From contig NC_010628.1 of the NCBI RefSeq assembly GCF_000020025.1, positions 2,820,001-2,852,000 of the forward strand: a DNA stretch of 32,000 nucleotides. The letters are read 5' to 3'. Within the stretch, counting starts at the first letter, position 1. Every line of letters starts with the position of its first letter. Positions 422-28,316 of the stretch are shown here, in pieces. Source of the DNA: Nostoc punctiforme PCC 73102 (GTDB lineage Bacteria > Cyanobacteriota > Cyanobacteriia > Cyanobacteriales > Nostocaceae). A model generated the notes under the pieces. The model did no database searches. It saw nothing but the letters and a program-made list of their open reading frames with translations, and had not been told where the DNA came from. Both the position numbers and the translations under genes were made by a program.

Positions 422-1112
422 GCACCATGCTTTAAAGTAAGTGAACGTAAATAATTGTCGTTAGGATAAGGCAATAGGTATAACAGTTTTAGCGTACTTC
501 ATTTTTCTTTACATAGTTTGATTTTATTCTGGCAACTTACTTAACCCGTAAACAAAATCGAATTTAACATTGCCAAAAATTGTCTGCAATGCTACGCTGT
601 GACTGAAATTGTACATACTATAAATATGTATAAATTTCAGAGTTAATTTAATCATTAGCTGGGTTAATTTAAGTAAAAAAATATTAACTTTTTTGTTAAC
701 CTGCATATAATACCCAATTAGCTCCGATAACTGAATCGTATAACTGAAATTTGTTGTTTAATCCAAATTAATCAGGCTTTAGTTTTGATTAAAGCCACAC
801 ATAACTTATTCATATAACCCCTTTCTAAACCTCCCGTCCATAGGGATAGAGGCTCTGATTCTTACTAACCTTACCTTTTAGTGAAGGGTTTAGGGGTAAT
901 GTTTGAGTGCAATTTGTACACGACAACAAATTATTATCGACACCATTTTTCTTGAATTTTCTGGAAAAGCTTTGATTGCTTTTGAATTCCAATACTAGTA
1001 GTTAAAAATCCTGCTGCATCATTAGAAATCTTGATTAGATTAGCTTTTGCCTCCATCTGTAATCTAGATGAAGTGTATATTTTCATGTCCATAATTGCTA
1101 AGGATGAATACA

Positions 1113-3446
1113 ATGACTCGTTTATCCAGCCCGATTGAAAACTTAAAAAGTTCCTATACAGTTGTAGTTATTGGTTCTGGTTATGGTGGTAGTATTGCCG
1201 CATCGCGTTTAGCACGAGCCGGACAGCAAGTGTGTATTTTAGAGCGAGGGAAAGAATTTCAACCTGGTGAATATCCCAAAACTCAAAGCAAAGCATTGGC
1301 ACAAATGCAGATAGATTTGCCACAACATCATCTAGGTTCGCACACAGCTTTGTATGACTTTCATGTGAATAAAGACATTAATGTCTTTATTGGTTGTGGA
1401 CTAGGTGGAACATCTTTAGTTAACGCCAATGTGTCATTACAAGCTGAACCGCGTGTATTTGCAGATTCACGCTGGCCAAAGGAATTGCGTGATGATGTCG
1501 GGACTTTATTAGCCGCAGGTTATCGTCGTGCAGAGGAAATGCTCAAACCTACTCCCTACCCTGAAAATTTTCCTCCACTACCAAAATTACAAGCTTTAGA
1601 AAAGTCGTCTAAATATTTGAATGAAAAGTTCTATCGTCCCCCCATCAATGTGACATTCCAAGATGGGGTGAATCATGTCGGTGTAGAACAAAACAAATGT
1701 AATCTCTGCGGTGATTGTGTTTCTGGCTGTAATAATAAAGCCAAAAACACCGTGTTGATGAATTACCTCCCAGATGCAAAAAACCACGGTGCAGAAATCT
1801 ATACACAAGTTTCCGTGCGACGAGTTGAACGTCAGGGGAATCGCTGGCTAGTCCATTACCAATTATTAAACACGGGACAAGAAAGCTTTAACGCTCCCAC
1901 AATGTTCGTCAGTGCTGATATTGTGATTCTGGCGGCTGGGACATTGGGATCTACAGAAATTTTGCTGCGTTCTCAAGCTGCTGGTTTAGCGGTATCTGAG
2001 AAATTGGGACATAATTTTACAGGCAATGGAGATGTTCTAGCTTTTGGCTATAACACCGAGCAAGTAATTAACGGTATTGGTTTTGGCGATCGCCCGGAGA
2101 ATGCCCAAGAACCAGTAGGGCCATGCATCACCGGTATCATAGATATGCGAGAACAGCCCCAATTAGATAACGGACTAGTTATTGAAGAAGGCTCAATTCC
2201 TGGAGGTCTGGCTGCTATATTACCCCAAACCCTTGCGGCGGCTGCCAAAATTTTAGGTAAAGACACCGACTCTGGTTTAGGCGATCGCATCGAAGAAAAA
2301 ATCCGCGAAGTTGAGAGTTTGACTCATGGTGCTTACACTGGTGCAGTCCGCAACACCCAAACCTACTTAGTCATGACCCATGATGATGCAGCCGGACAGA
2401 TGTACTTAGAAAATGACCGTCTCCGCATTAAATGGCAAGATGTAGGAAGCCAACCCATTTTTCAACGAGTCAATAATCGTCTTACAGAAGCCACCGAACC
2501 CCTAGGTGGTACACAAATTCCTAACCCCATTTGGTCTGATGCCTTTGGTCATGACTTAGTTACAGTCCATCCACTAGGAGGCTGTATCTTAGCGGAAGAT
2601 GCTGAACACGGTGTTGTCAACCATAAGGGACAAGTATTTGCTAGCAACCAAGGAACAAACGTCTACGAAAACTTATATGTCGCTGATGGTTCTATAGTTC
2701 CTCGGACATTAGGTGTAAATCCATTACTGACAATCTCTGCTCTAGCGGAACGCTGCTGTACCCTCATTGCTAAAGACCGGGGTTGGACGATTAATTATGA
2801 TTTGACTACCCCGCCCATAGTCAACGGTGACACTACCCGTTCTACCACAGTCGGTATTCAATTCACCGAGACCATGCGCGGCTACTTTTCTACCGCAGTC
2901 AAAGACGACAACTATCAGCCTGCATTCTGGCAAGGCAAACAAGACAACTCGCCTCTAGAGTTCACCGTTACAGTAATTGCCGATGACTTAGACAAACTAC
3001 TCAATGACCCCGAACACCTAGGGAAAATAGTTGGTATAGTTAAAGCCCCCATTTTATCACCAGAAGCCCTAACCGTCACCAATAGCGATTTTAATTTGTT
3101 TGTTGTCCAACAAGGCCAACAAAACACCAGACAAATGCGTTATCGCTTACACATGATGACGCAATCAGGACAACGTTATTACTTGAAAGGCTTCAAGCAA
3201 ATTCATGATGACCCAGGATTCGATGTTTGGTCTGACACCACCACACTATTCATCACCGTTTATGAGGGCGACAGTGAAAATGATCCCATCGTTGGTCAAG
3301 GCATTCTCAAAATTCAGCCGATGGACTTCATCAAACAAATGACCACTATGAAAGTTACCAACGCAGATACTATTGGGGAACGCCTACAAGCAATAGATAG
3401 ATTCAGTCGTTTCTTTGCCGGCACTTTAGCGGAAGTCTACATTTAA
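1113..3446 (+). CDS. ChoD/cholesterol-oxidase-like GMC family FAD oxidoreductase with an extra C-terminal domain
   Basis: The ORF spans 1095-3446, with TTG at 1095 and ATG at 1104 and 1113; AAGGA at 1100-1104 favours 1113. Motifs: VVVIGSGYGGS (GxGxxG FAD fold), GCGLGGTSLVNANV, the Cys cluster CNLCGDCVSGCNNKAKNT, and C-terminal HPLGGC...VADGSIVP, as in GMC oxidoreductases. The last ~195 aa (nt ~2850-3443) are homologous to the C-terminus of the patatin protein at 6114-7655. Confidence 0.85.
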   Translation: MTRLSSPIENLKSSYTVVVIGSGYGGSIAASRLARAGQQVCILERGKEFQPGEYPKTQSKALAQMQIDLPQHHLGSHTALYDFHVNKDINVFIGCGLGGTSLVNANVSLQAEPRVFADSRWPKELRDDVGTLLAAGYRRAEEMLKPTPYPENFPPLPKLQALEKSSKYLNEKFYRPPINVTFQDGVNHVGVEQNKCNLCGDCVSGCNNKAKNTVLMNYLPDAKNHGAEIYTQVSVRRVERQGNRWLVHYQLLNTGQESFNAPTMFVSADIVILAAGTLGSTEILLRSQAAGLAVSEKLGHNFTGNGDVLAFGYNTEQVINGIGFGDRPENAQEPVGPCITGIIDMREQPQLDNGLVIEEGSIPGGLAAILPQTLAAAAKILGKDTDSGLGDRIEEKIREVESLTHGAYTGAVRNTQTYLVMTHDDAAGQMYLENDRLRIKWQDVGSQPIFQRVNNRLTEATEPLGGTQIPNPIWSDAFGHDLVTVHPLGGCILAEDAEHGVVNHKGQVFASNQGTNVYENLYVADGSIVPRTLGVNPLLTISALAERCCTLIAKDRGWTINYDLTTPPIVNGDTTRSTTVGIQFTETMRGYFSTAVKDDNYQPAFWQGKQDNSPLEFTVTVIADDLDKLLNDPEHLGKIVGIVKAPILSPEALTVTNSDFNLFVVQQGQQNTRQMRYRLHMMTQSGQRYYLKGFKQIHDDPGFDVWSDTTTLFITVYEGDSENDPIVGQGILKIQPMDFIKQMTTMKVTNADTIGERLQAIDRFSRFFAGTLAEVYI

Positions 3447-3674: not shown

Positions 3675-4724
3675 ATGAACACCACAACATATACTCAATC
3701 TTTACAAGAAAGAATAGTACCTTTTACTAGCAAAGATGGCTTTGAATGTAACTTAATTAACGTTAGAGGTGAAAAGCCTCCTTCTAAATCGCCTGTATTA
3801 CTAGCGCATGGTGCAGGAGTCAGAGCAAATATCTTTCGCGCTCCTGTGGATACTAATATAGTTGATTACTTAGTTGCTCATGGTTATGACGTATGGTTAG
3901 AAAACTGGCGTGCCAGTATTGACTTAAATCCTAATCATTGGACACTTGACCGAGCCGCAGTGAATGACCATCCACAAGCGGTGAAAACAATTGTCGAAGA
4001 GACGGGTTATGAAAAGATCAAAGCTATCATCCATTGTCAGGGATCTACTAGTTTCATGATGTCTGTGGTGGCTGGCTTAGTCCCACAAGTCAAAACTATT
4101 ATCAGCAATGCCGTTTCACTGCATCCGATTGTACCTTCATGGTCATCTTTCAAAATTAATTTTGCAGTACCAGCCGTCAATTTCCTCACCGATCATTTAA
4201 ACCCACAATGGCAAATAGATTCACCAAGTCTAGCTGCAAAAATCATCTCTCTGGTCGTGGGTCTTACCCATCACGAATGTAATAATTCAGTCTGTAAACA
4301 AGTTAGCTTTACTTATGGGACTGGCTTCCCGGCATTGTGGGAACACGCCAACCTCAACGAAGCCACCCACGAATGGCTAAAGCAGGAATTCGCCTATGTG
4401 CCGCTCAGTTTTTTCGCACAAATGTCTCAGTGCATCAATCGTGGACATCTAATTTCTGTTGATAACTTCCCCAATTTCCCAAAAGATTTTATTGCCCAAC
4501 CACCAAAAACCGATGCCCGTATTGCATTTTTTGCTGGGCAACTTAACCGTTGCTTTCTCCCACAAAGTCAGATAGAAACTTTTAAATATTTTGACTCTCT
4601 GCGTCCTAGTTACCATGCTTTACACGTTCTGGATAACTACAGTCATTTAGACATATTTATGGGTAAGAATGCAGCCAAAGATGTGTTTCCCTTAATGCTT
4701 GCAGAATTAGAAAAGACTGTTTGA
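3675..4724 (+). CDS. alpha/beta-fold hydrolase (lipase/esterase-like) with an atypical nucleophile elbow
   Basis: 349-aa ORF. It has PVLLAHGAGVRANIF (oxyanion region), IIHCQGSTSFM where GxSxG is expected, and a C-terminal YSHLDIFMG (candidate catalytic His). Confidence 0.75.
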   Translation: MNTTTYTQSLQERIVPFTSKDGFECNLINVRGEKPPSKSPVLLAHGAGVRANIFRAPVDTNIVDYLVAHGYDVWLENWRASIDLNPNHWTLDRAAVNDHPQAVKTIVEETGYEKIKAIIHCQGSTSFMMSVVAGLVPQVKTIISNAVSLHPIVPSWSSFKINFAVPAVNFLTDHLNPQWQIDSPSLAAKIISLVVGLTHHECNNSVCKQVSFTYGTGFPALWEHANLNEATHEWLKQEFAYVPLSFFAQMSQCINRGHLISVDNFPNFPKDFIAQPPKTDARIAFFAGQLNRCFLPQSQIETFKYFDSLRPSYHALHVLDNYSHLDIFMGKNAAKDVFPLMLAELEKTV

Positions 4725-4796: not shown

Positions 4797-5705
4797 ATGA
4801 TACCTCAACGTTTAAAACAACAAACAGGACTTTATGCCCTAGTTGATGGCATACCTTTTCAGTTACCCGTTAATTCTGAACAGACACCAGCATTGATGGC
4901 GGTATTTCCGATTAACGCCGATCGCGCTAAAGAATTGATCCTAGCCAAAGAAGTACATCCTCTGCGACTATGGAATAATCAGGGGTTGTTAGTAATCACA
5001 GTGATTAATTATCAGATTACTGACATTGGTAAATACATCGAATTTAGTATTGCGATCGCCTGCACTCATGGCGCAAAACCAGCCCCGCCATTACTACCTG
5101 GTTTATTGATGCAACAGTACGGCACTGGGCAGTATGTACTTGATTTACCTGTTAGTACCGAAATTTCTGTCAAAGGGGGTAAAGGAATTTGGGGAATGCC
5201 CAAACATCAAGCTAACTTGGACTTTGTGATTGGCGATCGCACTGTCAGCAGTCAATATGATTTAGATGGGCAACTAGTGATGAAAATTGAAGTTGCCAAA
5301 CCCGCCAAAGCTTGGTTTCCCCTGAAAATGGGTGCAGCAAACTACTGTGCATTTCGCGGAATGTTGATGAAATCCGTGATTTACTTTCAAGGGAAATTGG
5401 GATTTTCGCTGTTTAAACCAGGTTCAGCCAAACTTACCATAGGCGATCATCCCCGTATCCAATCACTAAAACACCTAGAGATTAGCCCCGAACCTATATT
5501 TACAGGCTTTTTCCCGGAAATCACAGGGATGCTAGATGACCATTTGGAGAGTTGGTTTCTTGGCTACGACACACCCCCCACACAACAACCAGAAGGTTTA
5601 GAAAGTGTAGTTAATTTAGGTTTGGGTCAAGAATGGCTACCAGCGCCAAAGGCTTTGCCCAAGGATGATCAAGCCGAGATGTATGTAGTACCAATTAAAA
5701 ATTAA
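4797..5705 (+). CDS. acetoacetate decarboxylase (ADC)-like family protein
   Basis: 302-aa ORF. GKYIEFSIAI and VKGGKGIWGMPKHQANLDF resemble the Y-x-E and GRExWGxPKK motifs of the ADC family. The size fits. It starts 72 nt after the upstream gene. Confidence 0.6.
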   Translation: MIPQRLKQQTGLYALVDGIPFQLPVNSEQTPALMAVFPINADRAKELILAKEVHPLRLWNNQGLLVITVINYQITDIGKYIEFSIAIACTHGAKPAPPLLPGLLMQQYGTGQYVLDLPVSTEISVKGGKGIWGMPKHQANLDFVIGDRTVSSQYDLDGQLVMKIEVAKPAKAWFPLKMGAANYCAFRGMLMKSVIYFQGKLGFSLFKPGSAKLTIGDHPRIQSLKHLEISPEPIFTGFFPEITGMLDDHLESWFLGYDTPPTQQPEGLESVVNLGLGQEWLPAPKALPKDDQAEMYVVPIKN

Positions 5706-5713
5706 TCAAAAAT

Positions 5714-6133
5714 ATGATGAATAACGGTAAAGTACTCCACTTATCATTAATTGGCATTGCCATTTTCACCATTGTGAGTGGATTGTTGCAAATGGTTTTG
5801 CCTAGTTTGGTACTCTACATTGTCTCAGCAGAAGTAACCCCGACTAGCCAGCATTTTTTTGCCATCATCGGTATGTTTATGCTGCTGTTTAACGGCGCAC
5901 TGTTACAAGCATTAATCAGCCCACAACCCCAACCTATTGTCTTAATTTGGGCAGGATTACAAAAATTTGGTGCTTCAATAACCGTTTGTTTGGCTGTTAT
6001 CAGGCTAATTTTTTCCCCATTCGCGCTGCTAATTGCTGGTTTTGACCTGTTATCAGGAGTATTAATTTTCTGGTACTTGTTTCGCTTGCGTACTTTTACA
6101 CCAGGATACACTTATGAGCAACCAACCGCATAA
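5714..6133 (+). CDS. small integral membrane protein (about 4 TM segments), function unknown
   Basis: 139-aa hydrophobic ORF. It starts 8 nt after the ADC-like gene and overlaps the patatin gene start by 20 nt. Confidence 0.6.
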   Translation: MMNNGKVLHLSLIGIAIFTIVSGLLQMVLPSLVLYIVSAEVTPTSQHFFAIIGMFMLLFNGALLQALISPQPQPIVLIWAGLQKFGASITVCLAVIRLIFSPFALLIAGFDLLSGVLIFWYLFRLRTFTPGYTYEQPTA

Positions 6134-7655
6134 ACCTTACGGCACTCCTGAACCAACATACTCAGGGAATAAACGTTCCTTGATTTTAGCTGGTGGTGGA
6201 ATGCGTGTAGCTTACCAAGCTGGAGCTATCCGCGCCTTAATCGAATCAGGACTGTGTTTTAATCATGCGGATGGTACTTCCGGCGGTACGATGAATTTAG
6301 CAATGCTGCTATCTGGACTATCGCCGATTGAGATGTGCGATCGCTGGCAGACTTTGAATGTTAAAGATTTTGTCTCCTTTATCCCTCTAGAAAAATACCT
6401 CAAAGCCTGGGATTTGTTATCTATGGGAGATGCAGATGGCATTATCGATCGCGTTTTCCCCCACTTGGGAATTGATATCAGCAAAATCAATGCCTCGGAG
6501 GGAATGCAAGGTACATTTAATGTTTGCAACTTTACCCACAAAACTAATGAAGTCATTCCCCACGATCGCTTAGATTTAGATTTATTGGTTGCAGGGATTT
6601 CTCTCCCCATCTTTATGCCACCTGTACAAAAAGGTGATTATCTATACATGGATTCCGTGTGGATTAAAGATGTTAATCTCATGGAAGCGGTGCGCCGGGG
6701 TGCAGATGAACTTTGGGTATTGTGGTGCATTGGCAATAGTAGCGAATATCAAACGGGAATTTTTAATCAATATGTCCACATGATGGAACTGAGTGCGAAC
6801 GGGGCATTTTTTGAAGAGTGCGATCGCATCAATGAAATCAACCAGAGAATTTTGCAAGGGGAGACAGTCTACGGACATACCCAACCGATCAAACTCCACC
6901 TCATCAAACCCGCTTATCCTTTACCTCTTGATCCTGATTACTATTTGGGAAACATTGATGGTGCAACTTTGGTTGATATGGGTTACGCCGATGCTAAACA
7001 ATATTTGCAAACCATGTCACCCGCAGGATTGCCCTTCCAGCCAGACGTGACCCGAATGCACAATAATTTGCCAGGAATGACTTTCCGCGAAAGCATGGCG
7101 GGTGCGTTTGTTTTAAATGAGACTGACCCGATTCAGGGTGCAGCAAAAGGCAAAGCGCACAATTCCTCACTCTCATTGCAACTGACCATTAACATTTGTG
7201 ACTTAAAACGTTTTTTGGGTGATACTACTTTTACTGCTAGTATTGCTGGTAACATTAGTTTTGCGAATTTTGGCGAACACATTCCCTTCAAAAGAGGCGT
7301 GTTTAACCTGTTTGCTCATGACCATAATCCCGGATATAAATACATTACTTATGAACTTGCTTTTGAACATGGTAATCAAGATTACTACTTAGTAGGCAAG
7401 AAAGAACTGCATAACGATCCGGGATTTGATTTGTGGCAAGACATGACAACTATCTATACTTACCTACATCAAGGTACAGATAACAACAGTCCCATTATTG
7501 GTTCAGGAATTTTAACCCTAGATGTGGGTGACGTAGCCAAGTGCGTTTCCGGGTGGCGAATTACTAACGCCAAGTCACTGACAGAGAAAACTACATTATT
7601 GGCAGAGTTTGGTAGTTTTTTCTGGGGCAATATTTGGGAAACTTACCAACCGTAA
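6114..7655 (+). CDS. patatin-like phospholipase with the same C-terminal domain as the GMC oxidoreductase
   Basis: LILAGGGMRVAYQAG (GGGxR oxyanion motif), GTSGG (GxSxG serine) and YMDSVW (candidate Asp of the dyad). The C-terminal ~190 aa (nt ~7070-7652) align with 2850-3443, for example HNDPGFDLWQDMTTIY against HDDPGFDVWSDTTTLF. Confidence 0.85.
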   Translation: MSNQPHKPYGTPEPTYSGNKRSLILAGGGMRVAYQAGAIRALIESGLCFNHADGTSGGTMNLAMLLSGLSPIEMCDRWQTLNVKDFVSFIPLEKYLKAWDLLSMGDADGIIDRVFPHLGIDISKINASEGMQGTFNVCNFTHKTNEVIPHDRLDLDLLVAGISLPIFMPPVQKGDYLYMDSVWIKDVNLMEAVRRGADELWVLWCIGNSSEYQTGIFNQYVHMMELSANGAFFEECDRINEINQRILQGETVYGHTQPIKLHLIKPAYPLPLDPDYYLGNIDGATLVDMGYADAKQYLQTMSPAGLPFQPDVTRMHNNLPGMTFRESMAGAFVLNETDPIQGAAKGKAHNSSLSLQLTINICDLKRFLGDTTFTASIAGNISFANFGEHIPFKRGVFNLFAHDHNPGYKYITYELAFEHGNQDYYLVGKKELHNDPGFDLWQDMTTIYTYLHQGTDNNSPIIGSGILTLDVGDVAKCVSGWRITNAKSLTEKTTLLAEFGSFFWGNIWETYQP

Positions 7656-7830
7656 ATTCCAAATTAAACCTCTGCTGAGTGGAGTATAAAGGTTTAAGGG
7701 TGTAGGGAAAATACATTTTCATGTTTAGTTGTGCAATTTTCTCTTGAATCCTTCCCGCCTTCTCCCAAAGGGAGACGCTAAAAGCGATCTGCCTTCTGCC
7801 TTCTTTCACAACTTTTCAGGAGAAATTAAC

Positions 7831-10035
7831 ATGAGCGATCGCCTTATGCCTTTACCCTCATCATTCTTATTCGGTGTTGCAACTGCTGACCATCAGTGTG
7901 AAGCTTACGATTCCCAGTTTGAAGATATTCGGGATGTATGGGAACGTCGTCGCGGTATTACGGTCAGGGGTCGAGCCACTGACTTTTGGCATCGCTACGC
8001 TGAAGATATTGCCTTAGCTCAGTCCCTTGGTTGCAAGTCTTTCCGGTTTTCGATCGCTTGGTCACGGGTAGAACCTGAACCCGGTAAGTTCAGTGAAGAA
8101 GCTTTTGAACATTATCGCCAAGTAATTGAAACTATCAGATCGCATGGTTTAGAACCAATTGTAACTCTGCATCACTTCACCCATCCCATCCATGTAGAAG
8201 CACGGGGGGGTTTAACTGCGCCAGAATTTCCAGCTATTTTTGCTAACTACGCCACAGAAGTCGCCAAGCGTTTGGGTCATTTGGCACGTTATTGGATTAG
8301 CTTTAACGAACCTAGCCAATTAATTTACGGTTACATCAAGCCTTGGTGGGAAAGAGCCTATTTTATGCCCCCAGGTTTAGAGCGCGGTGCAACTATTGCC
8401 GATCAAATGACCGCCGTGCAGAAACTCATGCGGAATTTGTTTGTCTCCCATACACGCGCCAGAAATATCCTCAAAGAGTACAACCCAGATGCTCAAGTGG
8501 GAGCAAACCCCATGTTATTGGGTCTGCCTCTATGGTTGCAGAAATTGGTGGATCACAATGTCACTAATCTGCGTCGTCCCGAAGATATGATTTCTCAGGG
8601 TAAACGTTTTACTGAGCGCAGTTTGTTGGAAAAAGGAAAAGTTGATGTTGTCATTGCTAATTTGACTATTACCGCCGAGCGACAACAGCAAGTAGCGTTT
8701 TCGGAAACTTATTATCAGGCGGGGCAATTTCTCTTAGTCAAAGCCACCAGTCCCATTCAGCAACCAGAAAATCTGGCTCAGAAAACAGTAGCAGTTATCA
8801 AAAGTGCGACGGCAGAATCTACCATAGAATACCTGTTACCCAGAGTTGAAGTCAAAGTAGTAGAAGATTACGCTGATGCCTTGCAAGCCTTGGATTATGA
8901 GCAAGTGAGCGCCATTCTTGCAGATGACACAATTCTCTTGGGTCTGATGAGACAACAACCAGGGCAATATCGACTGGTGGGTAAAAATGGTGAAGGGCTG
9001 ACAGTAGAGAACTATGGCGCAGCTGTAGTTAAAGGCGATCGCGCCTTCTTGAATATTGTAGATACAGTAGTGCGACAGTTTAAAGAATCCGGGGCTTGGC
9101 AAGCTAGCTATAGTCATTACTTCCCTAATCAACCCGTCCCACCTGTACCGAAAATCGGCAGACGTTCAACCCTAGCTGACATCACCACAGGCGGATCTTC
9201 TAGTCCAACTATCGGACAGCCTCAACCCGGTACACCACTGCGACGCATTCAAGACCGTGGTTATTTAGTTGTCGCAGTCAAAGAAAACGTACCTGGGTTT
9301 GGCTACCGCGACCCCAAAACCGGAGAATTTAGCGGCTTAGAGATTGATTTAGCGCGTTTAATCGCCAAGCAAATCTTTGGCGATCCCAGCAAAGTGAAAT
9401 TTGTCGCCGTTTCCACCCAACAACGCTTACCCGTACTGCGATCGCTCACCCGCATCTTTGACCCAATTTTCAAGATTTTCAGCGTACTTTCCACATCACT
9501 GACAAGTAACTGGTGGCACTTAGGTATGGCTGGGAAATTACCCACATTCCTCTGTCCTCAAGAATGTGTAGGTCAACAAGATTTTGTTGGTTTTGACTAT
9601 TACTGGGGGATTAGCAATCTTCGACTCAACCGCATTCAACAATTAATGGATGCTGCTTTTGGACGTTTTAGTAATGCGCCAGTTTGGTCTGGTGTTCTCT
9701 ACGATATGCTCAAATTCCACGCCCAGTTATTCCCCGATAAAGAAATTATGATTATTGAGAATGGCTGTGTAGAAGTAGCCGATAAAGTCGTCAAGCGCGA
9801 AGACTACATTCGCCAGCATCTCCAACAAGTGCAACGCGCTCGTCAAGACGGGATAAACGTCATCGGTTACGTCTCCTGGTGCATCACCTCCAACCGCGAG
9901 TGGGGTCTGAAATTTGGCCCAGATAGCGATTTTGGACTATATCACATTGACCTAGATACAGACCCAGAACTCAAACGCCAACCAACCCCAGCCGCTAACT
10001 TATACCGCGATATCATCAAACAAAACAGCGTCTAA
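7831..10035 (+). CDS. glycoside hydrolase family 1 (beta-glucosidase-like) carrying an inserted, apparently circularly permuted solute-binding-protein (SBP_bac_3-like) domain
   Basis: ATG at 7831 is preceded by CAGGAG at 7817-7822; the longer ORF from 7729 lacks homology-like sequence. GH1 motifs: FLFGVATADHQCE, FRFSIAWSRVEP, LHHFTHP, FNEP (acid/base Glu codon 8308-8310), DFVGFDYYWG, IIENG (nucleophile Glu codon 9757-9759) and WCITSNREWG. The SBP-like segments lie between nt ~8635 and ~9445. Confidence 0.85.
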   Translation: MSDRLMPLPSSFLFGVATADHQCEAYDSQFEDIRDVWERRRGITVRGRATDFWHRYAEDIALAQSLGCKSFRFSIAWSRVEPEPGKFSEEAFEHYRQVIETIRSHGLEPIVTLHHFTHPIHVEARGGLTAPEFPAIFANYATEVAKRLGHLARYWISFNEPSQLIYGYIKPWWERAYFMPPGLERGATIADQMTAVQKLMRNLFVSHTRARNILKEYNPDAQVGANPMLLGLPLWLQKLVDHNVTNLRRPEDMISQGKRFTERSLLEKGKVDVVIANLTITAERQQQVAFSETYYQAGQFLLVKATSPIQQPENLAQKTVAVIKSATAESTIEYLLPRVEVKVVEDYADALQALDYEQVSAILADDTILLGLMRQQPGQYRLVGKNGEGLTVENYGAAVVKGDRAFLNIVDTVVRQFKESGAWQASYSHYFPNQPVPPVPKIGRRSTLADITTGGSSSPTIGQPQPGTPLRRIQDRGYLVVAVKENVPGFGYRDPKTGEFSGLEIDLARLIAKQIFGDPSKVKFVAVSTQQRLPVLRSLTRIFDPIFKIFSVLSTSLTSNWWHLGMAGKLPTFLCPQECVGQQDFVGFDYYWGISNLRLNRIQQLMDAAFGRFSNAPVWSGVLYDMLKFHAQLFPDKEIMIIENGCVEVADKVVKREDYIRQHLQQVQRARQDGINVIGYVSWCITSNREWGLKFGPDSDFGLYHIDLDTDPELKRQPTPAANLYRDIIKQNSV

Positions 10036-10468: not shown

Positions 10469-11314
10469 ATGCCCAAAACAGTTTTCATCACCGGAACATC
10501 CAGTGGAATTGGGAAATTCACCACCATATACTTCGCGCAACAAGGCTGGAACGTTGCAGCCACGATGCGAAACCCCAGTCAAGACCAGAATTTCCGTGAA
10601 TTTCCTAACATCAAAGTATATTTTTTAGATGTTACAGATAATAACAGTATTCAAACTGCGATCGCTTCTGCCATCCAAGATTTTGGTCAAATTGATGTTT
10701 TAGTAAATAACGCTGGTTATGGCGTAGATGGTGTATTTGAAGCCATGACTGATGAAATAATCGCCAAACAATTCAATACCAACGTCTTTGGCTTGATGCG
10801 AATCACACAAGCGATCATTCCCCATCTACGTCAACAAGGCGGTGGCACTATTATTCAAATTGCCAGTATGGGAGGACGAATTACTTTCCCCTTATATAGC
10901 ATTTATCACAGTTCAAAATGGGCGGTAGAAGGGTTTAGTGAAGCTTTGCATTATGAATTAGAACCATTCAATATCAAAATTAAAATTGTTGAACCAGGTG
11001 TGATTAAAACTGAATTTTACGAAAATAATCGAGCGATCGTGCGTGATGATTTGCCGATGTATCAACCATTAGTAGATACTACACAAAGGGTATCCCAAGA
11101 AGCGGGAAGAAAAGGAGAGCCTCCAGAATTAGTTGCTCAGGCAATATTTAAAGCAGCCATCGATCGTAGTTATAAAATGCGCTATTGCGTCGGTCAACCT
11201 GCGCCCATTTTGCTTATGCTGCGTAAATTGTTGCCCGATAATTGGTTTTTCTCCATCATCAAACGTATTTATAACCTACCTTCTGGAAGCAAAACTGTCA
11301 CACCCCAAAAGTAA
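10469..11314 (+). CDS. short-chain dehydrogenase/reductase (SDR) family oxidoreductase
   Basis: VFITGTSSGIGK (TGxxxGxG), VNNAGYG (NNAG) and SIYHSSKWAVEG (YxxxK). The 281-aa length is typical of classical SDRs. Confidence 0.9.
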   Translation: MPKTVFITGTSSGIGKFTTIYFAQQGWNVAATMRNPSQDQNFREFPNIKVYFLDVTDNNSIQTAIASAIQDFGQIDVLVNNAGYGVDGVFEAMTDEIIAKQFNTNVFGLMRITQAIIPHLRQQGGGTIIQIASMGGRITFPLYSIYHSSKWAVEGFSEALHYELEPFNIKIKIVEPGVIKTEFYENNRAIVRDDLPMYQPLVDTTQRVSQEAGRKGEPPELVAQAIFKAAIDRSYKMRYCVGQPAPILLMLRKLLPDNWFFSIIKRIYNLPSGSKTVTPQK

Positions 11315-11454: not shown

Positions 11455-12185
11455 CTATGTTAAATTTGGATATAAACGCTCCATTTTTCGGCGAGCATCT
11501 TTGGTTTGAAAACCCCAATAAACACTAGCTTTTTGCTGATTACGTTTTTTCTCCCAAGCGGCAATCTCAGAAGTTAATGTTTCTGCATTAGGAATACGCC
11601 GTTCTAAACATTGGCGAGATAAAACAGATAATTCGATTTCTACCTGATTCAGCCCTTCGGGTTCGCCAGTTGCTTCAAGTCGGGGAACCCGCCCAACGCA
11701 CTGGCTCACCAAGAAGCGTGTTTAGGAGTATAGTGAAACTCTAACTTTTGAATAATTCGACGTGCTTCTTCTGGTGGAAAAACTTCATATAATGCATTGG
11801 GTGTATGAATATTCAAGTTATCAACTACTAAACGAATAACATCGGCATCTCGGTAGGAAACATCTACTAAATTTTTCATTTGTTTAGCAAAATCGGCTTT
11901 AGTTCGACGTTCTGTAACTTCGATATGCCGCCATCCAGCCAAGGGTTGAAAACATGCGAATAAATTTACTGTCCCGTTACGTTTATACTCAAAATCATAA
12001 CGTTCAGGTTGCTCTGGCTGTGGTGGCAAAGGAAGTCTTACTTTTTCTACTAATTGGTATGGACGTTCATCAAAGCAGACTACAGGGCGTTTAGGATCAT
12101 AAGGCTCATTGTATAAATCCAGCACATCTTCCATTCGGAAAACATATTCTGCGTTAACTTCAGGAATACACCATTGTTCTTTCAA
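11455..12185 (-). pseudogene. IS630-family transposase DDE domain, split by a 56-nt insertion
   Basis: ORF 11706-12185 ends ...HYTPKHASW, then a stop. ORF 11455-11712 resumes with LNQVEIELSVL after 56 extra nucleotides. The expected contiguous sequence is ...KHASWLNQVEIE..., so the domain is broken between the second Asp and the Glu of the catalytic triad. Confidence 0.8.
11653..11708 (-). repeat. 56-nt hairpin-containing mini-insertion inside the transposase gene
   Basis: On the minus strand the insert reads tgagccagtgcgttgggcgggttccccgacttgaagcaactggcgaacccgaaggg. It contains GGGTTC...GAACCC inverted repeats. Its length is not a multiple of 3 and it introduces a TGA. The boundaries are ambiguous by a few nt. 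Confidence 0.6.
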
Positions 12186-12622
12186 CCAAGGCTTAATTTC
12201 ATTTTTTTTAAAGTTTGACGTACTGTTTCATCTGAGATTGAATCTATGATACCAACGTTCACTAAATGATCTGCTAATAATTGCATTGTCCAACGCACTC
12301 TTCCTTCTGGCGGATTAGAACAAGCTGTTGCAATCAAAAATGCTTCTTGCTTTTCATCTAATTTTTTATGTTTTGGTGGATGAACTTCATCCTTTAAAGC
12401 AAAATCTAACCCTCCAATGACAAATTTTTCTCGTATTCGTTGCACTGTTGCAACATGCGCTCTAACTATGCTAGCGATCGCTTGATCCGTTTCTCCTTCG
12501 GAAGCCATCAAAAGAATGTTTGCACGGCTTATGGTTCTTGCCTTATGCTTACCTTTCTTAATTATCGATTGCAGTTGGGAAACTTCATCTTCATTCAAGT
12601 CAACAATGTACTTTTTTGCCAT
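12182..12622 (-). CDS. IS630-family transposase, N-terminal helix-turn-helix part (orfA)
   Basis: 146-aa ORF. It ends just after an A8 run (T8 at 12202-12209 on the + strand). The -1 frame continues as [14 protein letters not shown], the usual junction of IS630 transposases. Confidence 0.8.
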
Positions 12623-21832: not shown

Positions 21833-21901
21833 ATGAGTAACGAATTCATAGAATTGCCTGAAGGTTGGCTGTGGACAAAATTAGGAAATTTTAACTCTTA
21901 A
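21833..21901 (+). pseudogene. possible 22-aa remnant of a type I restriction-modification specificity (HsdS) N-terminus
   Basis: MSNEFIELPEGWLWTKLGNFNS resembles the common HsdS start (LPEGWEWxKLGE). It stops after 22 codons and overlaps the dprA stop. It is very short, so this is weak. Confidence 0.25.
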
Positions 21902-23061
21902 CTTTTTTGATACCGCATCCCTGGTAGTTGCAAAACTAAACCCATAAGTTCCAACTGTAACAAAGCACCCGAAACTGAGCCAGCAGCCATGCCGGTTTGT
22001 TCAACAATAAAATCGAAGGGTAAAGCATCACTTGTAAACGCATCCATTACCGTTTGCAATTCTGGCGATAAAGTTGGCATTAACTGTTCTGGCGCTGTGG
22101 AAGTCTCGACTCTATCAATTTGTGGTATTGCTCCCAGCATTGTTAACAGTTCATCTAATTCCTTGACAATCAAAGAAGCTCCCTGACTAAGTAACTTTAA
22201 GCACCCTTGAGATGGATGCTCGTCTACTCTTCCAGGTAAGGCATAGACATCTCTACCAAATTCATTTGCGTAAGTAGCTGTAATTAAAGCACCAGATTTT
22301 AAAGGCGCTTCTATTACGAGGATGGCGCGGCTTAAACCCGCAATAATTCGGTTGCGACGGGGAAAGTGCGTGCGATCGGGTGGGGTTTTTGTGGGGTACT
22401 CACTTACAACTAATCCAGCCGTCAAAATTTGCTTGTACAAATCCCGATTTTTATGTGGATAGATCACATCTACACCAGTTCCTAAAACTGCGATCGTGCG
22501 TCCACCTGCTTTCATTGCAGCGATGTGGCTTTCTGTGTCAATTCCCTCTGCCATTCCAGAAACAACTGTAAAGCCATTTTTAGCCAAAGCTGTACTAATT
22601 TGGCGAGTCCAACGGATGCCATATTCTGAGGGTTGGCGTGTGCCGACAATCCCAACCATCGGTTTTTGTCCGAGATTTTCTTGGAGTTCGACTTCACCGC
22701 GATAGTACAAAATCGGCGGTGGACTGGGAGTTTCAAGCAGTAAGCGGGGATAATCTGTGTCTGCTGGTGTCCAGAAATGGGAATTTTCTTGCTGGTGCTT
22801 GGTGAATAGTTGTTCTGGGTGCAAACGCGATCGCTGTTGTACTACTTTTTCTAGGGTCTGAAAACCAAAACCCTCCACTTCTCCTAACTGTACCTTGGTA
22901 GCGTTCCAAGCTGTTGCCAGCGTGCCAAAATGCTGTTGCAGTCGTCGCAATAATACCGGGCCAATTCCCGAAATTTGCGCCCAAGCTATCCAATATGCGC
23001 CTTCTTGTACCACGGTTTCATCCTCACGCCTACTGGATTGAGTATTCCCAAATTTTCCCAA
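21898..23061 (-). CDS. dprA: DNA-processing protein DprA (Smf)
   Basis: AYWIAWAQISGIGPVLLRRL at the N-terminus. The Rossmann-like core has VGIVGTRQPSEYG, SGMAEGIDTESHIAAMKAGGRTIAVLGTGVDVIYPHKN and RNRIIAGLS. The start is uncertain: TTG at 23061, or GTG at 23013 preceded by GAGGA. Confidence 0.9.
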   Translation of the reverse strand: MGKFGNTQSSRREDETVVQEGAYWIAWAQISGIGPVLLRRLQQHFGTLATAWNATKVQLGEVEGFGFQTLEKVVQQRSRLHPEQLFTKHQQENSHFWTPADTDYPRLLLETPSPPPILYYRGEVELQENLGQKPMVGIVGTRQPSEYGIRWTRQISTALAKNGFTVVSGMAEGIDTESHIAAMKAGGRTIAVLGTGVDVIYPHKNRDLYKQILTAGLVVSEYPTKTPPDRTHFPRRNRIIAGLSRAILVIEAPLKSGALITATYANEFGRDVYALPGRVDEHPSQGCLKLLSQGASLIVKELDELLTMLGAIPQIDRVETSTAPEQLMPTLSPELQTVMDAFTSDALPFDFIVEQTGMAAGSVSGALLQLELMGLVLQLPGMRYQKS

Positions 23062-23263: not shown

Positions 23264-23282
23264 TATCTTCCGATCTTCTGTG

Positions 23283-24419
23283 ATGAAATATTTCTATCGT
23301 CTTTTAATAAGCCTATCTGGGTGCTTAATATTTTTACTGGTGCATAGTGGTCTTGGTTTATTGCCTAGTTTGGCGGCCGAGAAAGTTACTGTCAGATACG
23401 GGCTGTTTGAGCAATCGATCCCGGTGGCAGATATACGCAACTATGGCGAGAAGCAAAAGGCTTCTAGCGATTTGCAATCTTTCTTAGATTACCTCAGCGC
23501 TAAAGAGAAAGAGAAGTTTCAAGAAGCCCTTCAAGTGAAAATGTCGCTTGATATTGTGGCTTTAGATAAGCTGATAAACACAGGAATGGGCAAGCAAATT
23601 TTATCTTTTGCTTCTGGTGCGATCGCCCGCCGCGATCGAGCCAGTATACAAGCCCTACGTTCTGCCATTATCATCGGAGCAAAATCACCAGAAGGTCTAG
23701 GATTAATCAGCTTTTTAGAAGCATATCCTAGTAATCAACTAGTTGTTGACGTGTCAAAAATTTCTAAGCTAGTTGGACTAGCAAATTCCTCTTCTAATTC
23801 TGCTGATGCATCACCGAAAGACAATGTAAGTTCTTCACCTTTTGGAAAAATTGCACTGCAATATCAAATACTCGCCGCCCAAGATAAACAGTTTTCAGGG
23901 TGCTTATTTGGCGATTCTATTTCGGCTGGACTTGGTAATACCCTTGGGAGTGGCACTTTTAATTTTGGGTTAAATGGCCTAAGCACAATCTCATTACTGG
24001 AACAATTGAAAAGTTTAATTCCTACTAAAGTTAGATGCGAAAAAGCTATTATTGCCGTAGGTGGTAATGATGCTTGGTATGGAATTAATGATGAATTGTT
24101 TACCAAAAATCTCCAAGAGGCGATCGCACTTGTTAGAACAATGGGAAATAAAGAGATTTTTCTAATTCCGGCTTTTTATTCAACAGTTGCAGCCAGCTTA
24201 GATCCAACTGTATCAGCTCCACTTCCTAAAGTTGAACAAATTAATGTTCTAATTAATCAAGTCGCTGAGAAAGAAAAAGTGCCAGTTGCAGCAGCAGGAT
24301 TAGCACCATTGTATGAGAATAATGTTCTTAAAGAGAATTTGACGAGCGATGGCGACCATCTCAATGCTGAGGGTCTAAAAATTTATCGACAAGCATTATT
24401 ACAAATCCTGGAAAAATAA
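23283..24419 (+). CDS. DUF1400-domain plus SGNH/GDSL-family hydrolase, secreted or membrane-anchored
   Basis: Signal/anchor MKYFYRLLISLSGCLIFLLV. AAEKVTVRYGLFEQSIPVADIRNYGE resembles the cyanobacterial DUF1400 N-domain. SGNH blocks: GDSISAG, GGNDAWY and DGDHLN. ATG at 23283 follows an in-frame GTG at 23280. Confidence 0.8.
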   Translation: MKYFYRLLISLSGCLIFLLVHSGLGLLPSLAAEKVTVRYGLFEQSIPVADIRNYGEKQKASSDLQSFLDYLSAKEKEKFQEALQVKMSLDIVALDKLINTGMGKQILSFASGAIARRDRASIQALRSAIIIGAKSPEGLGLISFLEAYPSNQLVVDVSKISKLVGLANSSSNSADASPKDNVSSSPFGKIALQYQILAAQDKQFSGCLFGDSISAGLGNTLGSGTFNFGLNGLSTISLLEQLKSLIPTKVRCEKAIIAVGGNDAWYGINDELFTKNLQEAIALVRTMGNKEIFLIPAFYSTVAASLDPTVSAPLPKVEQINVLINQVAEKEKVPVAAAGLAPLYENNVLKENLTSDGDHLNAEGLKIYRQALLQILEK

Positions 24420-26138: not shown

Positions 26139-28202
26139 ATGAGCGATCGCATAATTGGGCGCAAGAAATCAGCCGCATCAACTTTTACGAATCCGTCGCT
26201 TGCCTCACCAGGTATTCCGACACTAGCGAACCCAATACACGGCTTTGGTTCACAAATCAATACTGCCCCGCTCCAAACAGTAACTGAAGTAGCCCCAGAG
26301 CTTCAAGAGGCACAGTCTGCTGATGGGCAATTATTAGAACCAGAAGCGATCAAAGAAAAACCCCTTAGTCACGACATAAGTCGCATATCATTACGTCGTC
26401 CACAGCCAAAACTTACCGTTGGTCAGCCTGGAGACAAATACGAACAAGAAGCGGAGATGAATGCTCAGGCATTTACGCACAAGCAAGATGTTTACTTTGA
26501 TGCGGGGAAGGCTCCTACCCATAAATTGACTCATTTGGTGCAGCAAACTGGTGATGCAGCAAGCCATAAGGTTATTCAGCGCTATCAGGCAGGGGAATCA
26601 GGACATGGCTCAATAGAGAAAAAAGGCTTGATATTAGCTGGCTTCACTGCCGACGAAGCAGCAGAGGCTTATCTAGGTAATTGGATGCGTGATTTATCAC
26701 AACTCGGCCCAGATATGTTTCCTTTGGTGGAACTGCTGGGAATGGGGGAATTTGGCAAGCCAATCGACCAGAGTAAACTGGGAACCTATGTTCCTTCAGA
26801 ACACATGGATAATCCCGACGGAGGTAATACCGTTGAAGATCCGACTTCAACAACCACCGCAAAGGATGTTGATGCTCGTAATGAAAATAAAAAGCAACTA
26901 TCCGAATCCCAAAAGAAAGACCAAGAAGCAGCTGATGCAGCCTATGCCGAGATCAAAGCTGCCGCAGCAAAGAATCGTCTGCCAGCTTATATTGAGCGCG
27001 GCAAGTTTATGGCTAAGAGAAAATTGGTAGAGGCAATCAAAAAAGGTGATACATCAGAGGGACGGGAGGAGATGAGTAGTGCTTTACATGCTATAGAAGA
27101 TTATTTTTCTCATACCAACTTTACTGAAGCAGCCATCTGGGTACTGGCGAAGGAAAACCCAGCTAAATATAAGCCTCTGATGGCTAAGATGTCCCAGACA
27201 ACTTTAGGGATAGGTACAGCAACGGTGGGTGGATTAGATAAAAAAGGACTACCCCAAATTATCAGTGGCACTTATGTTGCAGGTGCTAACAACATGGTTA
27301 GTAAAATTGAATTACTCAAAACCGAACTAGAGAGTGGGGCTTTAACTGTAGCCTTAGTAAAAGGCTTGATGATGAAAGGAGGCATTACAGCAGATGTTCT
27401 TGCCAATAAGTTAGGTGAGAAGATGGGAGTTAAACCAATCTTCCGTACTGTTGAAGGTGGGATAGGTGCAGTAGTGGGTGGTGTAGAAGGAGCAGTTAAA
27501 GGTACTGCTAGCGGTGCGAGAACAGGCGGGGCGGCAGGTCGGAAAATCGGCGGGCTTTTTGGTACTCTTGGCGAAGTTGTGGGTGAAGAAATTGGCGAGC
27601 AAGTTGGTGGTGTAGTTGGCGGTGTATCCGGTGGTGTATCCGGTGCTAGAGCAGGCAAAGCCGCAGGTGAAGAAATGGGCGAACAGGATGCCGAAGCCAT
27701 TCTTAAAGCAGCTGGCTTTGCGATTAAAGGTGGTATGGTTGTAATTACGGCCGGGACTATGGCTACCTTACTTACACTCTTCCCAGTAATTGCAGCGGAT
27801 TTGGCAGCAGTTGTCAGTGTGGCGAAAAGTAAATTAGGACAAAAACTATTAGATGCTTATGCTGAGAAAAAAGTGGCGGAGTCCACTAAAGAGGCGAAAG
27901 CCAAAGGTTTGACTGGCCCCACTCACTCAGAGCTTGCCAAGGATGCTCCCGACCACCCGCTCTTTGATGCTTCTGCCTCGCTAGCTGTGGAGGCGGTGAA
28001 AGGAGTTGGTGTTGCCATGAAGGTAGCGTGGGCACAGAATAAGACGAATCCTCCATCGACAGAACCTGTTGGCACAGAGGCAGTTACGAACCAGGTTGAT
28101 AAATATGTCTGCGCTTTAGATGGTGATGGGTGGTGGCGACCCATTATCGAGAAACAAGCAACGGCGGCTGGGATTACTACTTCTGGTGGTGCAGACAATT
28201 AA
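26139..28202 (+). CDS. DUF4157-leader protein with truncated/degenerate peptidase motif, HET-C-like domain, glycine-zipper region and TM segment
   Basis: The leader PLSHDISRISLRRPQPKLTVGQPGDKYEQEAE is of the DUF4157 type. HKLTHLVQQTG replaces HELTHVVQQTG. HET-C-like motifs: GESGHGSIE, YLGNWMRDLSQL, LGTYVPSEHMDNPDGG and HAIEDYFSHTNFTEAAI. Gly-rich repeats lie at 27451-27693, and a hydrophobic segment GGMVVITAGTMATLLTLFPVIAADLAAVV follows. Confidence 0.8.
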   Translation: MSDRIIGRKKSAASTFTNPSLASPGIPTLANPIHGFGSQINTAPLQTVTEVAPELQEAQSADGQLLEPEAIKEKPLSHDISRISLRRPQPKLTVGQPGDKYEQEAEMNAQAFTHKQDVYFDAGKAPTHKLTHLVQQTGDAASHKVIQRYQAGESGHGSIEKKGLILAGFTADEAAEAYLGNWMRDLSQLGPDMFPLVELLGMGEFGKPIDQSKLGTYVPSEHMDNPDGGNTVEDPTSTTTAKDVDARNENKKQLSESQKKDQEAADAAYAEIKAAAAKNRLPAYIERGKFMAKRKLVEAIKKGDTSEGREEMSSALHAIEDYFSHTNFTEAAIWVLAKENPAKYKPLMAKMSQTTLGIGTATVGGLDKKGLPQIISGTYVAGANNMVSKIELLKTELESGALTVALVKGLMMKGGITADVLANKLGEKMGVKPIFRTVEGGIGAVVGGVEGAVKGTASGARTGGAAGRKIGGLFGTLGEVVGEEIGEQVGGVVGGVSGGVSGARAGKAAGEEMGEQDAEAILKAAGFAIKGGMVVITAGTMATLLTLFPVIAADLAAVVSVAKSKLGQKLLDAYAEKKVAESTKEAKAKGLTGPTHSELAKDAPDHPLFDASASLAVEAVKGVGVAMKVAWAQNKTNPPSTEPVGTEAVTNQVDKYVCALDGDGWWRPIIEKQATAAGITTSGGADN

Positions 28203-28250
28203 TAATGTTCCAACTCGTTTTAGGGTGAATTTATAGCTTTAGTAAAATGT

Positions 28251-28316
28251 GCGATCGCATTACAAAATAATTTCCACTTAAGTCCATAGCGATCGCAATT
28301 AGATAAATTTTATGAT
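28251..28316 (+). promoter_or_regulatory. Conserved upstream control element, copy 2: HIP1 - 30 nt - HIP1 - 14 nt - TATGAT
   Basis: gcgatcgcattacaaaataatttccacttaagtccatagcgatcgcaattagataaattttatgat parallels 26032-26097. Confidence 0.5.

Follow-up and report, generated by a model that had tools for sequence, protein, structure and literature searches.

A shared C-terminal domain on a GMC oxidoreductase and a patatin-like protein of Nostoc punctiforme, and the gene cluster in which it recurs

The SCP2 domain is appended to the peroxisomal enzymes MFE-2 and SCPx, and the PLAT/LH2 domain is shared by lipoxygenases and pancreatic lipases. The characterised cholesterol oxidases are proteins of ∼500–580 amino acids, and are not known to possess a C-terminal barrel or a fused hydrolase. 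Here I report the analysis of a stretch of 32,000 nucleotides from Nostoc punctiforme PCC 73102 (NC_010628.1, positions 2,820,001 to 2,852,000 of the forward strand; this whole stretch is called the window, and all coordinates refer to it). It encodes a cholesterol-oxidase-like flavoenzyme of the GMC family and a patatin-like protein, which share a C-terminal domain of ∼200 residues, named TAIL here.

Two copies of TAIL and its place outside the named families

The flavoenzyme is encoded at 1095–3446 (+ strand), as an open reading frame (ORF) of 783 residues starting from a TTG at 1095, and the patatin-like lipid acyl hydrolase (513 residues) at 6114–7655, also on the + strand. A preliminary description of this DNA had proposed that one C-terminal domain is attached to these two unrelated catalytic domains, at 2850–3443 and 7070–7652. 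Pairwise comparison of the two full ORF products with BLASTP bears this out, with a single significant alignment between residues 579–782 of the GMC protein and residues 311–511 of the patatin (66 of 206 positions identical, or 32%, 47% positives, 7 gaps, E = 2e-27). The remaining segments all scored E > 2, and the catalytic parts are therefore unrelated. In nucleotides, the alignment spans ∼2829–3440 and ∼7044–7646, within ∼25 nucleotides of the limits first given, and every peptide pair quoted in the preliminary description falls inside it. A profile built from 42 homologues of the module (A1), scanned against all six frames of the whole window, matched exactly these two ORFs, with E = 4e-85 for the GMC tail (residues 581–782) and E = 3e-68 for the patatin tail. 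The copy on the GMC protein, designated G-type (for the GMC- and hydrolase-linked subfamily), is placed at 2829–3443 (+ strand, residues 579–783) by BLASTP, the profile match and an AlphaFold2 model, and the copy on the patatin, designated P-type (for the patatin-linked subfamily), at 7044–7652 (+ strand, residues 311–513) by BLASTP and the profile match. TAIL residues are numbered below as the GMC ORF residue number minus 575.

The module had been said to lack a named family, and this holds across the libraries searched. Neither tail was matched in Pfam at E ≤ 10, in NCBIfam at E ≤ 1 or in PHROGs at E ≤ 0.1, and the GMC tail, the one tested, had no match in PADLOC at E ≤ 0.001. Searches of PDB sequences with the GMC tail (phmmer) and with the A1 profile (hmmsearch) returned 0 matches at E ≤ 10, and a Foldseek search of the PDB with the TAIL model returned 0 matches at E ≤ 0.001. 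Pfam also leaves the TAIL stretch unmatched in five further TAIL proteins of different architecture, and none of its profiles for PLAT/LH2, C2, SCP2 or START/SRPBCC matches TAIL. SRPBCC is moreover distinct from TAIL, since in one protein (P0123) TAIL is followed by SRPBCC as a domain of its own. In the source annotations, the host proteins are called only ‘GMC family oxidoreductase’, ‘cholesterol oxidase’, ‘alpha/beta fold hydrolase’ or ‘patatin-like phospholipase’, and full-text searches of the literature library brought up no description of the module or of its operon. As every membership test that could be run (Pfam or PDB profile, Foldseek significance) came back without a match, TAIL is filed here outside any named family, as an accessory barrel on lipid enzymes.

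Two candidate assignments were rejected. The GMC ORF matches PF00732 (E = 1.5e-16) and PF05199 (E = 2.4e-11), the GMC part comprising the first ∼555 residues, and TAIL could be taken for a part of PF05199. That match reaches the last position of the profile at residue 551, however, and TAIL begins at residue ∼579. Tail-less GMC orthologues of 526–571 residues are present in related operons. An odd Pfam accession on one representative (P0120) was also set aside as a named family for TAIL, as this protein joins an HlyD fragment to a partial TAIL and is probably a chimeric gene call.

An exhaustive hidden Markov model (HMM) search of 1.84 billion cluster representatives (clusters at 50% identity) identified 2,698 TAIL representatives at E ≤ 1e-3, 2,001 at E ≤ 1e-10 and 729 at E ≤ 1e-30. 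When one genome was scanned for each species, at least 599 confirmed TAIL loci were obtained, in the Cyanobacteria, Acidobacteriota, Actinomycetota, Nitrospirota, Myxococcota, Gemmatimonadota, Bacteroidota and Chloroflexota, as well as in the Desulfobacterota, Latescibacterota and Alphaproteobacteria. Full-length GMC-TAIL proteins are 62–67% identical between Nostoc and Nitrospira, Chloroflexia or Thermodesulfobacteriota, and full-length patatin-TAIL proteins 55–65% identical across many phyla. Within the genus, the window patatin is 96% identical to a protein of Nostoc sp. TCL240-02, and the window tail DNA 99% identical to that of Nostoc sp. UCD121. TAIL is thus an autonomous, ancient and widespread domain family of ∼200 residues, undescribed in the libraries searched.

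Clustering of 163 domains separates the P-type from the G-type, and a third group, largely free-standing, also appears. The P-type cluster takes in, besides the patatin-linked domains, one TAIL fused to an acetoacetate-decarboxylase-like protein and one of two TAILs that precede a GMC domain. The window GMC copy scores 316 bits on the G-type HMM versus 200 bits on the P-type HMM, whereas the window patatin copy scores 284 bits on the P-type HMM versus 167 bits on the G-type HMM. Outside Nostoc, identity between domains of the same type reaches 67% for the GMC-linked copy and 55% for the patatin-linked copy, compared with 32% between the two window copies. By clustering and sub-HMM scores, these are ancient paralogues from two old subfamilies, and since each is nearer to same-type domains outside Nostoc than to the other, a recent duplication inside the window is rejected. 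The broader proposal that the likeness of the tails reflects chance, local duplication or an assembly artefact has nothing in its favour and is extremely improbable, given the E-value of the alignment, the identity of 55–67% of both architectures across phyla, the assignment of the copies, which are 50–58% identical to domains of their own type outside Nostoc, to different ancient subfamilies, and the recovery of the same operon from independent assemblies.

Fusion architectures and the conserved gene cluster

The window proteins were used as probes, with a Pfam cross-check, to assign the architecture of 140 newly retrieved proteins of the 150 best representatives. In 69 of the 140, the probe match is to TAIL alone, as a free-standing domain, a fragment or an unassigned extension. 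The remaining architectures are GMC-TAIL (32), TAIL-ABH (15), patatin-TAIL (11, one of these being patatin-TAIL-TAIL), GMC-TAIL-ABH (10), TAIL-GMC (2) and ADC-TAIL (1, P0237), where ABH is a lipase-like alpha/beta hydrolase with a Cys nucleophile and ADC an acetoacetate-decarboxylase-like (ADC-like) protein. Rarer additions are an SRPBCC/Polyketide_cyc2 lipid-binding domain after TAIL (P0123, counted among the 69) and a calcineurin-like metallophosphoesterase after GMC-TAIL (P0205, counted under GMC-TAIL). Rare extras aside, TAIL is fused only to products of one conserved cluster, in almost every possible arrangement. The idea of a module shared within the cluster is strengthened by this survey, as the enzymes with which TAIL recombines (GMC, alpha/beta hydrolase, patatin and ADC-like) are those of the window.

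A similar picture emerges from 80 genome loci. A GMC-TAIL-ABH fusion of ∼1,150 residues is found in 30 of these, GMC-TAIL with ABH downstream as a gene of its own, the form of the window, in ∼20, GMC-TAIL adjoining TAIL-ABH in 9, and a tail-less GMC followed by TAIL-ABH in 2. The window GMC-TAIL and its downstream ABH are the split form of this common tri-domain fusion. In one further locus (L089), a free-standing TAIL of 216 residues directly follows a tail-less GMC of 591 residues. The complete order of the window, namely GMC-TAIL, ABH, ADC-like, small membrane protein and patatin-TAIL, is present in 7 of the 80 loci (Nostoc, Nitrospira, Acidobacteriota and one unclassified genome). An alternative order, with ABH, ADC-like, small proteins, patatin-TAIL, an unassigned gene and a tail-less GMC, holds one TAIL only; it is present in genomes of the Manganitrophaceae and Verrucomicrobiota, as well as on two metagenome contigs.

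In the Chloroflexota and Thermomicrobiales, the patatin carries two tandem TAILs, the first of which is P-type. The second possesses the non-P signature residues F170, Q173 and T176, and scores equally on both sub-HMMs. Calling it G-type was rejected on the basis of these scores (∼190–220 bits on both), and it is ‘non-P-type’ only by its signature residues. Two Chloroflexota loci (L091 and L092) have the gene order of the window, with a GMC (569–571 residues) and an ABH that both lack TAIL, and a patatin that bears both copies; the second TAIL has here in effect shifted from the oxidase to the lipase. Operons of the window gene order thus conserve a pair of different TAILs, and not which polypeptide bears them. 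The operon of L091 opens with a 499-residue protein with a faint Metallophos match, and that of L092 with a protein of the same size without a Pfam match. In the Bacteroidota loci L082 (1981–3465), L059 and L075, from genomes of Cytophagales type, the patatins of the operon either end in a degenerate TAIL-like sequence (17 bits in L082) or show no TAIL at all, and the GMC keeps a normal TAIL.

These arrangements bear on the possibility that TAIL is mainly a protein-protein assembly module, in which TAIL-TAIL or TAIL-enzyme pairing would join the oxidase, hydrolase, ADC-like protein and patatin, possibly at the small membrane protein. Among the operons retrieved with the G-type TAIL, those with all five genes have one TAIL type on GMC and another on patatin (the window, L009, L010, L032, L041, L043, L045 and L058), and the Chloroflexota operons with a tail-less GMC have the tandem copies instead. 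The nine loci with GMC-TAIL beside TAIL-ABH, and the attachment of TAIL at either terminus or as a stand-alone protein directly after a tail-less GMC, point in the same direction. However, 30 of the 80 loci hold a single-TAIL GMC-TAIL-ABH fusion without a nearby patatin. With the structural evidence described below, I consider assembly to be rather unlikely as the principal role, although it is compatible with the binding of a ligand in a pocket.

The best NCBIfam model for the GMC ORF is that of cholesterol oxidase (NF058674, E = 2e-45), with 155 bits versus a cut-off of 850 bits, and because the score is so far below the cut-off, the substrate need not be a sterol. The active-site motifs HPLGG and GVNP are both present. 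Nostoc orthologues of GMC-TAIL at 98–99% identity are 777 residues long, and bear no designation other than ‘GMC family oxidoreductase’ or ‘cholesterol oxidase’. Since these annotated close homologues are shorter than the 783-residue ORF, translation probably begins at the ATG (1113), and not at the TTG (1095). An exact-sequence look-up of the 783-residue product gave no match, because the annotated starts lie six codons downstream. The GMC domain also contains a cysteine motif, CNLCGDCVSGC, at 1680–1730 (residues ∼195–212), with a weak match to the 4Fe-4S-type Pfam family Fer4_6 (E = 0.009); such a motif is not known from the classical Streptomyces cholesterol oxidase.

The gene at 3675–4724 (+ strand) encodes an acid-lipase-like alpha/beta hydrolase (ABH) with the sequence IHCQG, in which Cys replaces the nucleophile Ser; elsewhere, this protein is often fused behind GMC-TAIL. 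Its Cys121 aligns on the Ser of GHSQG in human gastric lipase, the nucleophile of that enzyme. The Cys at the nucleophile elbow is kept in 86 of 93 homologues, and weak matches to polyhydroxyalkanoate synthase models agree with an alpha/beta hydrolase of Cys-nucleophile type. This conserved Cys suggests thioester (acyl-Cys) chemistry, for example that of a transacylase rather than of a plain lipase.

The ADC-like protein (4797–5705, + strand) matches PF06314 (E = 6e-13), and its gene adjoins the hydrolase and patatin genes in other phyla. The GIWGMPKHQ motif and the stretch VKGGKGIWGMPKHQ are invariant in it, and may resemble the Schiff-base Lys motif of the acetoacetate decarboxylases; no sequence relative was found in the PDB at E ≤ 1. 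It is followed at 5714–6133 (+ strand) by a gene for a small hydrophobic protein of 139 residues, in the ORF list, with apparently four membrane helices as read by eye from its sequence. Homologues with conserved motifs occupy the same operon position in the Nitrospirota, Acidobacteriota and Chloroflexota, and the protein belongs to no assigned family. The gene overlaps the start of the patatin gene by 20 nucleotides, which suggests that the two are translationally coupled. None of the five core proteins has a signal-peptide-like N-terminus, again as read by eye.

The patatin possesses a clear patatin domain (PF01734, residues 23–192, E = 1.6e-19, 71.3 bits versus a cut-off of 27.7), with GGGMR as the oxyanion motif (GGGxR) and GTSGG as the nucleophile motif (GxSxG); all of 45 homologues keep S56 and D180. 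The Foldseek neighbours of its N-terminal part are CapV, CapE, PlpD, VipD and patatin. An anti-phage defence role, of the CapV/CapE type in cyclic-oligonucleotide-based signalling systems (CBASS), was nevertheless rejected, as the five core proteins have no PADLOC match and the partners are of metabolic type; the identity of 55–67% of patatin-TAIL and GMC-TAIL across phyla was counted with this rejection.

Downstream, at 7729–10035 (+ strand), lies a gene for a GH1 glycosidase (PF00232) interrupted by SBP_bac_3 domains (PF00497). A homologue adjoins GMC-TAIL or GMC-TAIL-ABH in other Nostocales, in one genome of the Nitrospirales (L042) and in one of the Thermoflexales (L074), and this protein may be a further member of the system, which could hint at a glycolipid substrate. 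A classical SDR gene follows at 10469–11314 (+ strand); SDR genes also adjoin GMC-TAIL in five other loci (L012, L013, L015, L063 and L072), and it may be loosely associated with the cluster. Directly downstream of it, three consecutive short ORFs (85, 159 and 146 residues) at 11455–12622 (− strand) resemble a broken transposase by eye, and may mark the end of the conserved cluster. Elsewhere in the window are a DprA gene (21898–23061), a gene for a protein with DUF1400 and a GDSL lipase (23280–24419) and an unrelated neighbourhood at 26139–31013 (+ strand), encoding a Het-C-like protein (PF07217), a protein with eCIS_core and OmpA domains and a HEAT-repeat protein.

Predicted structure, conserved residues and possible function

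An AlphaFold2 model of the G-type TAIL, obtained from an alignment of 42 sequences, has a mean predicted local distance difference test score (pLDDT) of 95.6 and a predicted template-modelling score (pTM) of 0.89. It shows eight long antiparallel strands of 8–13 residues each (12–24, 45–54, 67–75, 84–96, 103–113, 119–129, 142–149 and 157–164), four short helices, some lying between strands, a short ninth strand, and a C-terminal helix of 23 residues. This arrangement looks like a soluble barrel. In the patatin copy, modelled within the full-length protein, the secondary structure elements follow in the same order. Lipocalins (L-PGDS, RBP4 and the Rhodnius amine-binding lipocalin) are among the best Foldseek neighbours of both models, and designed eight-strand barrels, GID4, fHbp, the PyrI4 Diels-Alderase, DUF3237 and AttH are others, all at non-significant scores. 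The top neighbour of the G-type TAIL is MppR, a member of the ADC superfamily, likewise non-significant (E = 0.028, template-modelling (TM) score 0.17).

Conservation was mapped on 616 aligned TAIL domains, drawn from every fusion context and with tandem proteins contributing each of their copies; percentages are calculated where that part of the domain is present. Residues F15, E17, M19, G21, F91, L93, M106, Y108, G124, K126, W137, T142, G161, F195 and F199 are 91–100% conserved. Tyr108 reaches 100%, and Lys126 and Glu17 99–100% each, with the tandem copies alike; D139 and T140 are conserved at 84–100%. A near-invariant loop-helix-strand motif, DPGFDxWxDTTTL, is found in addition to the shorter motifs F-x-E-x-M-x-G, FNLF, M-x-Y and G-x-K.

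In each strand, an analysis of periodicity showed that residues of one parity are conserved and hydrophobic (mean entropy 0.7–1.7), and those of the opposite parity variable and polar (mean entropy 1.6–3.2, mostly R, T, E and K). Strands 1, 5 and 6 carry Glu17, Tyr108 and Lys126 on their conserved face, with the parity of F15/M19, M106 and G124/L122, respectively. From the hairpin register, positions 108 and 124/126 would be cross-strand neighbours. The conserved hydrophobic face thus looks like the interior of a barrel in which a Glu/Tyr/Lys constellation is buried, and the polar face like a solvent-exposed exterior. In the model of the full-length patatin (pLDDT 90.7, pTM 0.91), the inter-domain segment 291–320 has a pLDDT of 90–96. 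These values indicate that TAIL is firmly docked on the patatin catalytic domain, packed in a fixed position rather than held by a floppy tether.

I favour, at a probability of roughly 40%, the reading that TAIL is a docked ligand-pocket domain, which binds the common lipid of the operon and hands it to or from the attached enzyme. The barrel interior, which is conserved and for the most part hydrophobic, would form a pocket with Glu17, Tyr108 and Lys126 buried in it, which could take the polar head of the lipid (a carboxylate, hydroxyl or carbonyl) together with its apolar chain. The docked domain would then capture or pass on the substrate or intermediate of its host enzyme, in the manner of SCP2 on the peroxisomal beta-oxidation enzymes, or of a lipocalin or FABP pocket. 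As the operon holds one patatin-type and one non-patatin-type copy, each probably serves a different step: the P-type copy may serve lipid deacylation, and the other copy alcohol oxidation and the hydrolase step. The partners of TAIL (the GMC related to cholesterol oxidases, the hydrolase related to gastric lipase, and the patatin) provide a lipid context, as does the rare fusion of TAIL to the SRPBCC/Polyketide_cyc2 domain, and SCP2 and SRPBCC genes are found near one TAIL locus.

Several points weigh against such a pocket. The likeness to lipocalins is non-significant (E ≥ 0.03, TM-score 0.2–0.3), and the triad is placed inside the barrel by strand periodicity, not by geometry. Lipid-carrier domains (SCP2, START and lipocalins) are typically poorly conserved in sequence. 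The invariant Glu, Tyr and Lys and the near-invariant DPGFDxWxDTTTL look more like an enzyme or a specific interface, and a buried Glu-Lys pair could be purely structural. Furthermore, operons of the type of L005–L008 manage with one TAIL, and in some Bacteroidota the TAIL of the patatin is degenerate or absent.

The same conservation makes a catalytic role the strongest rival, and one that I hold to be possible but unlikely. TAIL would be an enzyme domain itself, for example an isomerase, a dehydratase or a decarboxylase/Schiff-base enzyme using Lys126, Glu17 and Tyr108; GMC-TAIL-ABH would then be a trifunctional enzyme, and the window copies paralogous catalysts for two steps. Across all contexts, the 616 domains keep the polar Glu17, Tyr108 and Lys126 invariant, with Asp139, Thr140, Thr142 and Trp137 near-invariant, and the 62–67% identity of GMC-TAIL between cyanobacteria, Nitrospira, Chloroflexia and Thermodesulfobacteriota is of a degree typical of enzymes, not of carriers. 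Partner shuffling within one operon is also typical of pathway enzymes, and barrel enzymes (MppR, the PyrI4 Diels-Alderase and lipocalin-type prostaglandin D synthase) are among the weak structural neighbours. On the other hand, Pfam, NCBIfam and PDB sequence and profile searches detected no relation to any enzyme family, the profile comparison with the ADC-like protein of the operon was negative, and no understood pathway points to a missing reaction that TAIL could supply. Two paralogous copies per operon, or tandem copies, would also be unusual for a single catalytic step.

The models likewise speak to the assembly of the cluster products. The predicted rigid docking on the patatin is in its favour, but each of the eight strands has a variable, polar outer face, and the invariant residues are partner-independent and on the inward face, which would be unexpected for interfaces with unrelated catalytic domains. 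The preliminary description had suggested binding of a common substrate, association of the enzymes, or targeting to a membrane or lipid body. The first two gain support from the present analysis, and the third loses some, since the outer strand faces are polar and variable. A membrane- or lipid-droplet-targeting domain, PLAT- or C2-like, would bring interfacial enzymes to the lipid surface; the host enzymes are all interfacial lipid enzymes, the operon includes a small membrane protein that is conserved, and PLAT itself is likewise common to an oxidising and a hydrolysing enzyme type. However, TAIL matches neither PLAT nor C2 in Pfam, no hydrophobic or amphipathic surface is evident as the hydrophobic residues face inward, and the invariant buried Glu, Tyr and Lys would be left unexplained. 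Targeting is the least supported of these alternatives, and I consider it improbable.

More speculatively, the cluster could form an undescribed bacterial lipid machine of very wide occurrence, in which the GMC flavoenzyme, the Cys-nucleophile hydrolase, the Schiff-base ADC-like enzyme and the patatin are physically coupled through paralogous TAIL barrels, these either carrying out a new Glu/Tyr/Lys-dependent reaction or channelling a lipid intermediate between the active sites; such an arrangement is possible but unlikely. A conceivable route would be deacylation, oxidation of the hydroxy-lipid to a keto-lipid, and (Schiff-base) decarboxylation or cleavage.

Comparison with known systems

TAIL groups thousands of sequence clusters with high cross-phylum conservation and an invariant triad, without a name, structure or paper in the literature searched, and occurs in phyla abundant in soil and freshwater, namely the Acidobacteriota, Nitrospirota, Actinomycetota, Gemmatimonadota, Myxococcota and Cyanobacteria. 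The Rosetta-stone fusions bind five generically annotated genes into one functional unit, a putative new conserved lipid pathway.

The host catalytic domain is of the same type as that of the class I (GMC) cholesterol oxidases, such as Streptomyces ChoA. Many TAIL proteins are labelled “cholesterol oxidase” in JGI annotations, and the extra barrel and the fused or adjacent lipase-like domain warn against this label. In one preprint, ‘cholesterol oxidase’ is among the functions weakly correlated (r = 0.18) with hopanoid genes.

The ADC superfamily (ADC and MppR) resembles TAIL in that its beta-rich cone or barrel buries a Lys and a Glu, which are catalytic there, and an ADC-like gene is present in the operon and once fused to TAIL. 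However, the TM-score to MppR is only 0.17, and TAIL has no PF06314 match. Homology to the ADC-like protein of the operon, prompted by MppR, was rejected, with an hhalign probability of 0.1–0.2% (against the single sequence and a 17-sequence ADC-like profile).

As modelled, TAIL resembles the lipocalins and other calycins (L-PGDS, RBP4 and the bacterial Blc) in its eight antiparallel strands, the helix behind them and an interior that would be hydrophobic with a few polar residues. Lipocalins recur most often among the structural neighbours of the two TAIL models, at non-significant scores (E 0.04–0.3, TM-score 0.2–0.3). TAIL differs in its extra inter-strand helices and 23-residue C-terminal helix, matches none of the Pfam lipocalin families, and has motifs distinct from the lipocalin signature (an N-terminal G-x-W). 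Lipocalins are also mostly secreted, whereas the TAIL proteins inspected by eye have no signal-peptide-like N-terminus.

PLAT/LH2 offers a parallel in distribution, as one beta-rich accessory domain found on an oxygen-dependent lipid-oxidising enzyme and on a lipase. It is however a beta-sandwich of ∼120 residues that binds membranes or colipase, whereas TAIL has ∼200 residues, eight long strands with helices and polar outer faces, and no PF01477 match.

The closest analogy in logic is SCP2 on peroxisomal MFE-2 and SCPx, a small lipid-handling domain on different enzymes of one lipid pathway, which is also found free-standing. SCP2 has an alpha/beta fold without an invariant polar triad, and its Pfam profile does not match TAIL, which is bacterial and tied to an operon of GMC, hydrolase, patatin and ADC-like genes. 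If the barrel is indeed a lipid hand-off or catalytic element, TAIL would represent a bacterial counterpart of the SCP2- and PLAT-type accessory domains, with a new fold variant.

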